DNA of 64,000 nt from positions 11,422-75,421 of the IMG/VR virus record IMGVR_UViG_3300031552_000003, one strand, 5' to 3'. This document shows, in pieces, positions 62,321 through 64,000 of this stretch (positions are counted from its first letter, which is position 1; every line of letters begins with the position of its first letter). Origin of the DNA: a virus. The notes beneath the pieces are model-generated. The model saw nothing but the letters and a program-made list of their open reading frames with translations, was not told the DNA's origin and ran no database searches. Position numbers and translations under genes: made by a program.

Positions 62321-62986
62321 CTATAATTCAGATTCGACAAAATACCCTGATTCATCTTTTTTTATTTCGGATGGCAAATTATCAATAGGTACATCATAAT
62401 CTTTTAAGATTATTTCTTCATCTGTAGCAATTCTTTCAATACCTATAATACCGTTTTTTAAAGTAATTATAATCATAGCTTTATTTTCAAAATTGGTTTT
62501 ATTTTCTTTGTCCCAAACAAAACTGTATTGTATTGCTTCCGCGATATGGCAAGCTGTAATAATCTTACTAAATTCCATTTGAGCAATTACATTACTGATT
62601 TTTTCAATTAAATCAATTCGAGATAACGACAAATCAAGTTTATCAATTGCATTTTTTAATAAACTGTTTATACCAATATCCGGTTTCCAAACAGGAGACG
62701 GGGATTGTTTTGATTTAATAATTCTTTTTTTAATATCTTCAATAGTTTCAAAGTGTTTTTCATTTTCAAAAAACGAAAGGGCTGGTTTTGATAATTCTAT
62801 GTTTATATCCCCATTTTTTGAAAAGTTACCAAAGAACCCTTTGCAAAAATCTTTGATTGTTTGATAATCACTTTCAGCGTTAGGGTATTCTTGTTTATCA
62901 AACCAAATCGATATACTAAAATTTCCTGTTTTTGCAATTTCAATAGCCCTAAAAAGATTTGGCCAAATTCCTATGATGTTTTTCAT
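62321..62986 (-). CDS. ComM/YifB (Mg-chelatase-like) derived protein lacking the ATPase core
   Basis: RAIEIAKTG and LS...IEKISNVIAQME...HIAEAIQY resemble ComM segments; no Walker A/B. Confidence 0.55.
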   Translation of the reverse strand: MKNIIGIWPNLFRAIEIAKTGNFSISIWFDKQEYPNAESDYQTIKDFCKGFFGNFSKNGDINIELSKPALSFFENEKHFETIEDIKKRIIKSKQSPSPVWKPDIGINSLLKNAIDKLDLSLSRIDLIEKISNVIAQMEFSKIITACHIAEAIQYSFVWDKENKTNFENKAMIIITLKNGIIGIERIATDEEIILKDYDVPIDNLPSEIKKDESGYFVESEL

Positions 62987-63016
62987 GATTAAAAAGTTTT
63001 AGTTTATACCTGTAAA

Positions 63017-63043
63017 ATCCGCTATCCAATGTGAATAGCGGAT
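63017..63043 (-). terminator. Hairpin, probable terminator
   Basis: ATCCGCTAT...ATAGCGGAT followed by UUU on the minus strand. Confidence 0.6.
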
Positions 63044-63066
63044 AAACTTATATTTTTATTGAAACA

Positions 63067-63333
63067 TTATAATTCATCATCAACCTGACAACAATATTTT
63101 GCATCATCAAAATCATCGTATTCCAGATGGCAACATGGGCAAACATATACAGTTTTGTATTCCTGATAATCATTAAATCCGCAACGATAAGCGGTAGGAT
63201 CAACACTTTGTAAGATATCCGAAGGAAGATACCCCATAAATTCAGGATAACATTCATCTAACATATCATCATAGTCTTCCATTGTGTACATTTCCACTTC
63301 TTTTGAAGTAGGATTAATAAGTTTAGTTTTCAT
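63067..63333 (-). CDS. Acidic hypothetical early protein
   Basis: Likely start MKTKL at 63333; YDDMLDECY, VDPTAYRCG, CPCC. Confidence 0.65.
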   Translation of the reverse strand: MKTKLINPTSKEVEMYTMEDYDDMLDECYPEFMGYLPSDILQSVDPTAYRCGFNDYQEYKTVYVCPCCHLEYDDFDDAKYCCQVDDEL

Positions 63334-63350
63334 TGTATTAAGTTTTAATT

Positions 63351-63405
63351 GGTTAAGATACATTATCAAATGTATTTCGGCTATAAAAGCACTCATCAGT
63401 TAACC
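63351..63405 (-). ncRNA. Type I hammerhead ribozyme
   Basis: GGUUAA CUGAUGA GUGCU-UUUAU-AGCC GAAA UACAUU-UGAU-AAUGUA UC UUAACC: full catalytic core, three stems, AUC cleavage triplet. Confidence 0.88.
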
Positions 63406-63541
63406 TAAAAAAAAGAAAATCAAAAAGGGGGAATATAATTAAAAAAAAATATCAAAGAGTAATCAACTTTGCTTGTTATTTCAATATCAAAAATCATAAA
63501 CCCCTTTTTGATTATCTAAAAAAAGCCTATTTTGTTTTAAT

Positions 63542-63720
63542 CAACGCTATTTACGTATTTATCCCTTTTGGTTGGCCGATGTTTCAGGCCGATTGTCCTG
63601 GTTAAAGTAAAAGGGCAAATCCCTGGTTTATACGAAACCGACGTTGGTAGATATTCGCTTTTGGGTATGCACAGGAGTAATCTACATCCCTTCGTTTATC
63701 AGTGAAATAAACCTCACTTC
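63542..63720 (-). ncRNA. Candidate structured non-coding RNA, class unknown
   Basis: ORF-free and GC-enriched; six nested or serial stems; starts just downstream of a promoter. Confidence 0.5.
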
Positions 63721-63731
63721 AAAATCATAAT

Positions 63732-63763
63732 CAAAGATACTATACAAAATCATTATCACCAAA
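63732..63763 (-). promoter_or_regulatory. Bacteroidota sigma70 promoter
   Basis: TTTG - 20 nt - TATCTTTG. Confidence 0.65.
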
Positions 63764-64000
63764 AACCACCACCTTGATACATAGCCATAAAACAACAATC
63801 TTAAATTAAATTATCAAACTTAGATTAATTTGTGATAATAAAAATACGGGCTTAAAAACAGTATAAAAACCAACCTTCAAAAAAAAGAAAAAAACCAAGC
63901 TATAAAAAAACAATAAAATTAACTAAAACTATATAGTAATGTAAGTACAATAGAGAAAAGAGAAAGGGTGATAATATAAAGGTGATAATAGGGTAAAGGG

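Follow-up and report, generated by a model that had tools for sequence, protein, structure and literature searches.

A hammerhead ribozyme and its probable untranslated leader at the head of an early operon in an uncultured phage

At the head of the minus-strand gene arm of one IMG/VR virus genome, a promoter-like site, a non-coding stretch and a hammerhead motif follow one another in the same orientation. The question raised by this arrangement is whether they make up an RNA gene of their own or the front part of the message that follows. The original prediction took the former view and described a structured RNA of about 370 nt that releases itself. Our analysis points to the latter, and the interval is probably the untranslated 5′ leader of the minus-strand early/replication operon together with an insulator-type hammerhead, rather than an RNA gene standing by itself.

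The window, meaning the whole 64,000-nt stretch analysed here, comprises bases 11422–75421 of a 75,421-nt virus record rated complete. The two ends of the record overlap by 13 nt (window 63988–64000 equals L002:1–13), hence the assembly is circular, despite the IMG/VR class of the record, which is linear. Plus-strand genes in the left part encode TerS-like, terminase, portal and tail proteins, and the replication genes, including SNF2 helicase, primase and PolA, run on the minus strand from ~63333 down to ~30000. The flagged interval lies on the minus strand at the head of this second arm, within a gene-free divergent zone of 1.73 kb (record 1–1060, that is L002:1–1060, plus window 63334–64000). 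GATAAT-type repeats are enriched 5–8× in this zone (~19 sites), with 15 copies of TGATAAT against 1.9 expected by length and four of GGTGATAAT against 0.2, and one site lies inside the promoter spacer (63752–63760) and one in the 5′ arm of a long inverted repeat; they are candidate operators or origin iterons. The phage is apparently of Bacteroidota type. GenBank phages gave no DNA match and no protein match to P0002, and their closest PolA was at most 27% identical, so no cultured phage is close. A 69.7-kb genome found among the IMG/VR relatives of PolA (61% identical), here called G001, provides the comparison for the leader. Listed from the promoter-like site towards the first gene, the features are as follows.

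63732–63763, minus strand: promoter-like TTTG-N20-TATCTTTG, a pattern match of the Bacteroidota sigma-A type.
63752–63760, unstranded: repeat unit GGTGATAAT in the promoter spacer, listed for its count enrichment.
63647–63685, minus strand: hairpin A, GUAGAU/AUCUAC, with a 27-nt loop starting UACUCC and ending GAAU; homologue in G001.
63642–63646, minus strand: linker CAACG (part of AAUAUCNACCAACG), identical in G001.
63625–63639, minus strand: hairpin B, GGUUU-CGUAU-AAACC; counterpart in G001.
63542–63624, minus strand: lineage-specific, GC-richer body (CCCUUUU/AAAAGGG, GGCC/GGCC, GCGUUG), fold z −0.28.
63414–63517, minus strand: long hairpin with 17-nt arms (13 bp perfect) and a 70-nt interior, fold z −3.43.
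63407–63413, minus strand: U run directly 3′ of the long hairpin, reading UUUUCUUUUUUUU with the end of the arm included.
63351–63405, minus strand: type I hammerhead, recognised by a leave-one-out model (R3), with the predicted cut between 63357 and 63356.
63334–63356, minus strand: 23-nt A-rich leader (UUAACCAAUUAAAACUUAAUACA) that cleavage would leave on the first early gene; same layout in other family members.
63067–63333, minus strand: first early ORF, P0001, 88 aa, Cys-rich, ATG at 63333.

The ribozyme had been proposed from the letters of this one sequence, and comparison with relatives bears it out. Position 63405–63351 scores 56 bits (E = 1.7e-13) against R3, a model built without the window copy, with all pairs standard and the extra U accommodated as a bulge. 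The conserved core is complete, with CUGAUGA at 63399–63393 (C3-U4-G5-A6-N7-G8-A9) and GAA at 63378–63376 (G12-A13-A14), and the three helices around it show the G10.1-C11.1 and A15.1-U16.1 pairs and a non-G at position 17 (C17). Stem I (GGUUAA/UUAACC) has 6 bp, stem II (G(U)GCU/AGCC) has 4 bp and one bulged U, a variant common to L031, L042 and L045, and stem III (AUACAU/AUGUAU) has 6 bp. With a slash for the cut, the motif reads GGUUAA-CUGAUGA-G(U)GCU..AGCC-GAAA-UACAU..AUGUA-UC/UUAACC. It is the only copy in the ~75.4-kb genome, where the next R3 match reaches 12 bits. Read by eye, stem I may extend further and hold an internal loop (U run/AAUUAAAA), a possible place for a stem I/stem II tertiary contact.

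A pattern scan of JGI metagenomes uncovered the family behind this model, whose members share stem I and vary in stems II and III. Stem I is nearly invariant (GGUUAA/UUAACC) and stems II and III covary strongly, as was already so in the first alignment. Among 33 distinct copies, 98.9% of cells are paired, 10 of the 14 pairs changed on both sides (88 cells in all), and none of 500 shuffles reached the observed value on any of the five covariation measures. The score under a model blind to the window copy, along with this covariation, argues that the hammerhead is genuine by sequence and structure, and it is predicted to cleave itself. The Rfam scan proposed as a check found no family at gathering score in the region; at E ≤ 10 it gave only chance snoRNA-like matches, and no model matched the window hammerhead. 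Family relatives reach 27–29 bits in Rfam hammerhead models, against thresholds of 48–56. One metagenomic contig, L035:1–6288 (Ga0182017_10011388), holds 14 family copies in 6.3 kb, before almost every small ORF, and its sub-threshold Rfam scores are 28.5 bits for HH9 and 25.8 bits for RAGATH-1-hammerhead. Copies with a near-invariant stem I are also present in L027–L045.

Throughout the family, UUAACC is followed by an A-rich leader and an ATG 13–25 nt after the cut, before unrelated genes and also at internal operon positions. The window copy is placed in the same manner, its cut lying 23 nt before ATG 63333, at the first ORF of the minus-strand arm. The constant partner of the ribozyme thus appears to be the downstream start region and not the upstream RNA, which suggests that the ribozyme serves to leave the following cistron with a 5′ end that is short, unstructured and rich in A. 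Such an end would be well suited to hosts whose translation starts without Shine-Dalgarno pairing (PMC9723704). As the same family stands before many unrelated genes, with up to 14 copies per contig, the hammerhead most likely acts as a 5′-end standardiser or insulator of the downstream cistron. Targets in trans were also considered and rejected, the substrate-like word TTAACCAAT occurring 48 times in the window against 64 expected.

Among the IMG/VR relatives of PolA, the hammerhead model matched G001 twice and G005 once, all at the heads of early arms. The G005 copy is preceded by a leader of ~170 nt that has no detectable similarity to the window leader. In G001, the counterparts of hairpins A and B are separated from the GGUUAA-type hammerhead by a 49-aa ORF, a hammerhead of another kind, a 121-aa ORF and one more ORF. 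This separation, together with the dissimilar leader of G005, indicates that leader hairpins and ribozyme are separate modules, and argues that the released upstream piece is a leader fragment and not a purpose-built non-coding RNA. The second G001 hammerhead (L122:1501–1565, minus strand) has AAUUGU/ACAAUU as stem I, follows the 49-aa predicted membrane ORF and gives a sub-threshold match of 27 bits to Rfam Hammerhead_3. The G005 family copy (L120:1501–1595, plus strand) has large insertions in stems II and III and stands opposite a TerS-like gene.

Among sequencing runs, none of RNA was listed for this stretch, and a close relative of the locus was present in one DNA run, X1, from a salt-marsh metagenome, as a 577-nt contig; window positions 63554–63838 are not covered. 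Over 62980–63425 the contig has 31 differences, of which 28 are listed, all at or below 63337, and the three unlisted ones must sit close to one or other end of the alignment. Positions 63338–63425, which include the hammerhead and, at 63414–63425, part of the 3′ arm of the long hairpin, carry no listed change. Positions 63499–63546, holding the whole 5′ arm, are unchanged as well, and 63426–63498 (the hairpin interior and the last five bases of the 3′ arm) are replaced by 72 unlike letters. In the P0001 ORF, 25 nt (9.4%) and 10 of the 88 residues differ. With changes at this rate, a run of 58 unchanged bases over the ribozyme has p ~0.003 and one of 48 unchanged bases p ~0.009, which indicates that the ribozyme and the long-hairpin stem were kept and the interior was swapped.

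Upstream of these elements, the promoter noted at 63732–63763 is present as TTTG-N20-TATCTTTG. In Bacteroidota the sigma-A −7 box TAnnTTTG occupies −12 to −5 (PMC9723704), and fitting TATCTTTG to that position puts the predicted start near 63727, 371 nt before the ribozyme cut. The pattern occurs eight times in the window against 6.5 expected, so it is not above chance in this AT-rich genome and position is the sole support for the site; transcription would nonetheless probably begin near 63727, from a Bacteroidota-type promoter amid the GATAAT repeats. The segment downstream is free of ORFs and GC-enriched, as the original prediction stated: no ORF of at least 50 aa occurs on either strand in 63400–64000, and GC content is 0.41–0.43 at 63550–63700 against 0.20–0.30 in the flanks. 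Small minus-strand ORFs do not offer a coding explanation either, none being common to the window phage and G001.

The stems listed for this segment are all in the sequence, and most of the fold that they were said to form lacks thermodynamic or comparative support. The 193-nt core folds no better than shuffles (z −0.83; reverse strand z −1.04), the same is true of the GUUUAU/AUAAAC sub-hairpin, and the CCCUUUU/AAAAGGG and GGCC domain is at shuffle level. The body at 63542–63624 finds no sequence match in G001, and its proposed fold is unsupported. Neither the long-range pair CAACGU/GCGUUG nor the UCCUG/CAGGA pseudoknot has a counterpart in the G001 leader, the only homologous leader found. 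The leader also contains small repeats, namely AACCAGG twice (63627–63621 and 63603–63597) and GGGAU three times. One further minus-strand word, UUAACCA at 63599–63605, copies the substrate strand of the hammerhead and could compete for pairing with the 5′ strand of stem I.

The long hairpin gives a different result. The 13-bp inverted repeat that had been noticed (63418–63430/63501–63513) is the perfect core of a 17-nt repeat with 94% complementary arms (63414–63430/63501–63517), and its 131-nt region folds with z −3.43, which none of 200 shuffles equalled. A U run follows it on the minus strand only. An intrinsic terminator has a GC-rich stem, a loop of 3–8 nt and a U run directly after the stem; this hairpin departs from that form in its 70-nt interior and in GC pairs that lie far from the U run, and a terminator scan returned no sites, the 8-nt loop limit being exceeded. 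It is a candidate pause/termination element or RNase III-type processing element. If it terminates efficiently, the hammerhead would rarely be transcribed from the 63732–63763 promoter. The interior is filled by a 25-aa ORF (63420–63497, minus strand) with AAGGGG 5 nt before its ATG and its stop in the 3′ arm, which could be a leader peptide or a chance occurrence; in the X1 relative the interior that holds this ORF is the part replaced by 72 unlike letters.

Comparative support among the proposed leader hairpins is limited to GUAGAU/AUCUAC and GGUUU/AAACC, which recur with compensatory changes in one other genome. Upstream of its first small ORF, G001 carries GGAUGUUGAUCACUCC..AAUAUCAACCAACG and then GAGG-ACGUAGA-CCUC, where the window has GGAUGUAGAUUACUCC..AAUAUCUACCAACG and then GGUUU-CGUAU-AAACC. 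Hairpin A of G001 is GUUGAU/AUCAAC with the loop CACUCCGAAAU, its stem differing from the window stem by one compensatory pair, and hairpin B lies in the same place with three pairs changed on both sides and its CGUA loop kept. The conserved loop letters are YACUCC, GAAU and CGUA, and apart from paired change two blocks of 16 and 13 nt are letter-perfect between the phages. In both phages the hairpins lie 47–48 nt after a (T/G)AnnTTTG −7-like box. The G001 site scores 23.4 bits (E ~1e-4) with a model made from the window copy alone, against ~12 bits for the best background match in whole genomes, and the motif is single copy in the window phage. The leaders as a whole align better than 300 of 300 shuffles.

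Covariation between two sequences is, in this case, only suggestive, with 4 of 11 pairs changed on both sides and 31 of 500 shuffles doing as well; all of the pairs are Watson-Crick, and there is no G-U pair to mark the strand. Covariation among homologues, which had been named as a check, is strong for the hammerhead family and is seen with one other genome for hairpins A and B. Hairpin A arms are 27 nt apart in the window and 11 nt apart in G001, and RNAfold prefers a competing helix on the window sequence and does not recover hairpin A. Plus-strand ORFs opposite hairpin A share ...RS[ND]xHPF[VF]Y in both phages; this candidate was rejected, since a 16-nt indel shifts the plus-strand frame and the nucleotides stay conserved, hence the conservation over hairpin A is not protein-coding. 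Pattern scans for the leader motif in IMG/VR and GTDB returned G001 alone plus chance matches in coding DNA, and the JGI metagenomes gave no match. A descriptor scan did not find the motif in the related phages G002–G005. The single-sequence leader model R2 found nothing in a fast first look at 46 related records, nor in the hammerhead-family loci with filters off.

Taken together, these elements are consistent with the following course of events. Transcription would start near 63727, at a promoter embedded in GATAAT repeats, and the first ~100 nt would carry hairpins A and B joined by CAACG, whose distance to the −7 box is kept in one related phage. The lineage-specific body would follow, and after it the long hairpin of ~100 nt, with its conserved stem, swappable interior and U-rich tail, as a possible site of pausing, termination or RNase III-type cleavage. 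The hammerhead would finally cut between 63357 and 63356, and the first gene would retain 23 nt of unstructured, A-rich leader with a 5′-OH. The downstream cistron would thereby gain a standard 5′ end shielded from structure further upstream, and the ~371-nt leader would be released as a by-product. For hairpins A and B, the most likely role is a cis effect on early transcription or on the fate of the RNA, as a site for binding or of antitermination type, and this is the weakest step of the scheme; they lie shortly downstream of the early promoter and before a hairpin with a U run, a position in keeping with control in cis of transcription or RNA processing. A bolder extension, which we hold to be rather unlikely, is that hairpins A and B (GGAUGUNGAUYACUCC...AAUAUCNACCAACG and the CGUA-loop hairpin) and the long hairpin form a new cis-acting early-transcription module, for example for antitermination or attenuation, in an uncultured Bacteroidota-type lineage, or that the released 371-nt leader persists and acts in trans.

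Of the other explanations, the one closest to the original prediction is a dedicated, structured early RNA of ~370 nt, released by the ribozyme and acting in trans, for example by sequestering a defence or regulatory protein as a decoy. The shared orientation of promoter, ORF-free GC-richer stretch and hammerhead agrees with it, and does mean that the upstream piece of a read-through transcript would end at the cut, so this part of the claim stands; the self-releasing RNA as a dedicated product is unsupported. The upstream fragment of a hammerhead cleavage ends in a 2′,3′-cyclic phosphate, which with a compact ribozyme fold could stabilise it, and the conserved letters YACUCC, GAAU and CGUA in the loops resemble protein-binding RNA. 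Against this, what the hammerhead family consistently accompanies is a downstream start codon and not an upstream RNA, three ORFs and another hammerhead separate the hairpins from the family hammerhead in G001, and most of the proposed fold is without support. Furthermore, scans of IMG/VR, JGI metagenomes, GTDB and related genomes gave no second genome with the whole unit, hence the conservation with covariation in several genomes that a stand-alone structured RNA should show was not found. We consider this explanation unlikely.

Quite improbable, in our judgement, is that the interval holds DNA-level signals of the divergent control region, such as origin iterons, operators, or cruciform or single-stranded hairpins for priming or packaging, with any RNA structure incidental. 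In its favour are the gene-free zone of 1.73 kb with its repeats, enriched 5–8× and present within the spacer of the promoter as well as the 5′ arm of the long repeat, the very AT-rich stretch at 63400–63500 (GC 0.20) and hairpins without strand-marking G-U pairs. The arm spacing of hairpin A, 27 nt here and 11 nt in G001, speaks more for a folded single strand than for a dimer operator, however, compensatory changes preserve pairing, and the U run after the long hairpin is on the minus strand only, matching promoter and ribozyme. Very unlikely, finally, is that the hammerhead alone is functional and 63410–63730 is a functionless spacer or leader, its stems and its likeness to G001 reflecting common descent. 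This would account for chance-level fold energies and for the absence of the hairpin A/B motif from other relatives, and relatedness by itself can mimic covariation when only two genomes are compared. Yet PolA is only ~61% identical between the phages while the 16-nt and 13-nt blocks are letter-perfect barring paired change, the nucleotides are conserved across a 16-nt indel that shifts the opposite-strand frame, and X1 keeps the stem of the long hairpin with its interior replaced.

Our preferred reading, an operon leader trimmed by an insulator-type hammerhead, can be compared with several known systems. The window copy has the full core, three helices and H17 of the hammerheads in Rfam clan CL00010 (RF00163, RF00008, RF02275-7) and of RAGATH-1-hammerhead (RF03152); it falls below gathering score and outside E 10 in every Rfam model. 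A layout of early leader and hammerhead is already known in phages: in the haloviruses HF1/HF2 the first early ORF lies 13 nt after a hammerhead, and the 5′ end mapped for the transcript coincides with the cut site (PMC3088659). As in this HHphage arrangement, the window hammerhead precedes the opening ORF of an early polycistronic transcript by a few nt (23 here, 13 there). It differs in being type I with a near-invariant stem I and a standard A-rich leader, in the apparently Bacteroidota-type phage that carries it, in cleavage that is predicted from sequence, and in what precedes it, a leader of ~310 nt that contains the two conserved hairpins and the long one. Clustered hammerheads that flank single genes were described in prophage operons by Perreault et al. 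2011 (Figure 3; PMC3088659). Other members of the window's family likewise flank single genes with several ribozymes; unlike those punctuated operons, the window genome has a single copy, with two in G001 and 14 in L035.

RiboJ-type insulators (Lou et al. 2012) are engineered hammerheads that include a 3′ hairpin and reportedly make expression independent of upstream sequence. The window hammerhead similarly separates a variable 5′ leader from the region of ribosome binding, although its function is deduced from the constant position of the family before start codons. The lambda nut sites and HK022 put RNAs are cis-acting antitermination elements in early leaders. As a positional analogy, hairpins A and B are also small hairpins with conserved loop letters, placed between an early promoter shortly upstream and a hairpin with a U run; unlike nut and put, the window leader has no sequence similarity to them, no boxA, no identified N-like protein and no demonstrated terminator.

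What this locus adds is a leader motif with two members and a sizeable subfamily of hammerheads missed by Rfam. It would illustrate cleanly how a hammerhead can trim an early phage message immediately upstream of the first gene, and the family appears to act as a natural 5′-UTR insulator in phages of hosts that do not rely on Shine-Dalgarno sequences. If hairpins A and B are functional, they would offer a handle on early-transcription control in such phages, and the support for this is thin.

P0001 has relatives in IMG/VR at 38–56% identity, without hammerhead and without a match to the leader. Other relatives of P0001 are 62–71% identical, and P0002 has relatives at 80–81% identity. A P0002-alignment scan of the metagenome and genome collections and a TerS scan of IMG/VR gave no match. 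The closest relative by helicase (L018, 75% identical) is not syntenic upstream; on its plus strand, L018:3830–4140 is a gene with ~35 tandem 9-nt repeats that place a Cys at every third residue (..NCRNCSNCSYC..).
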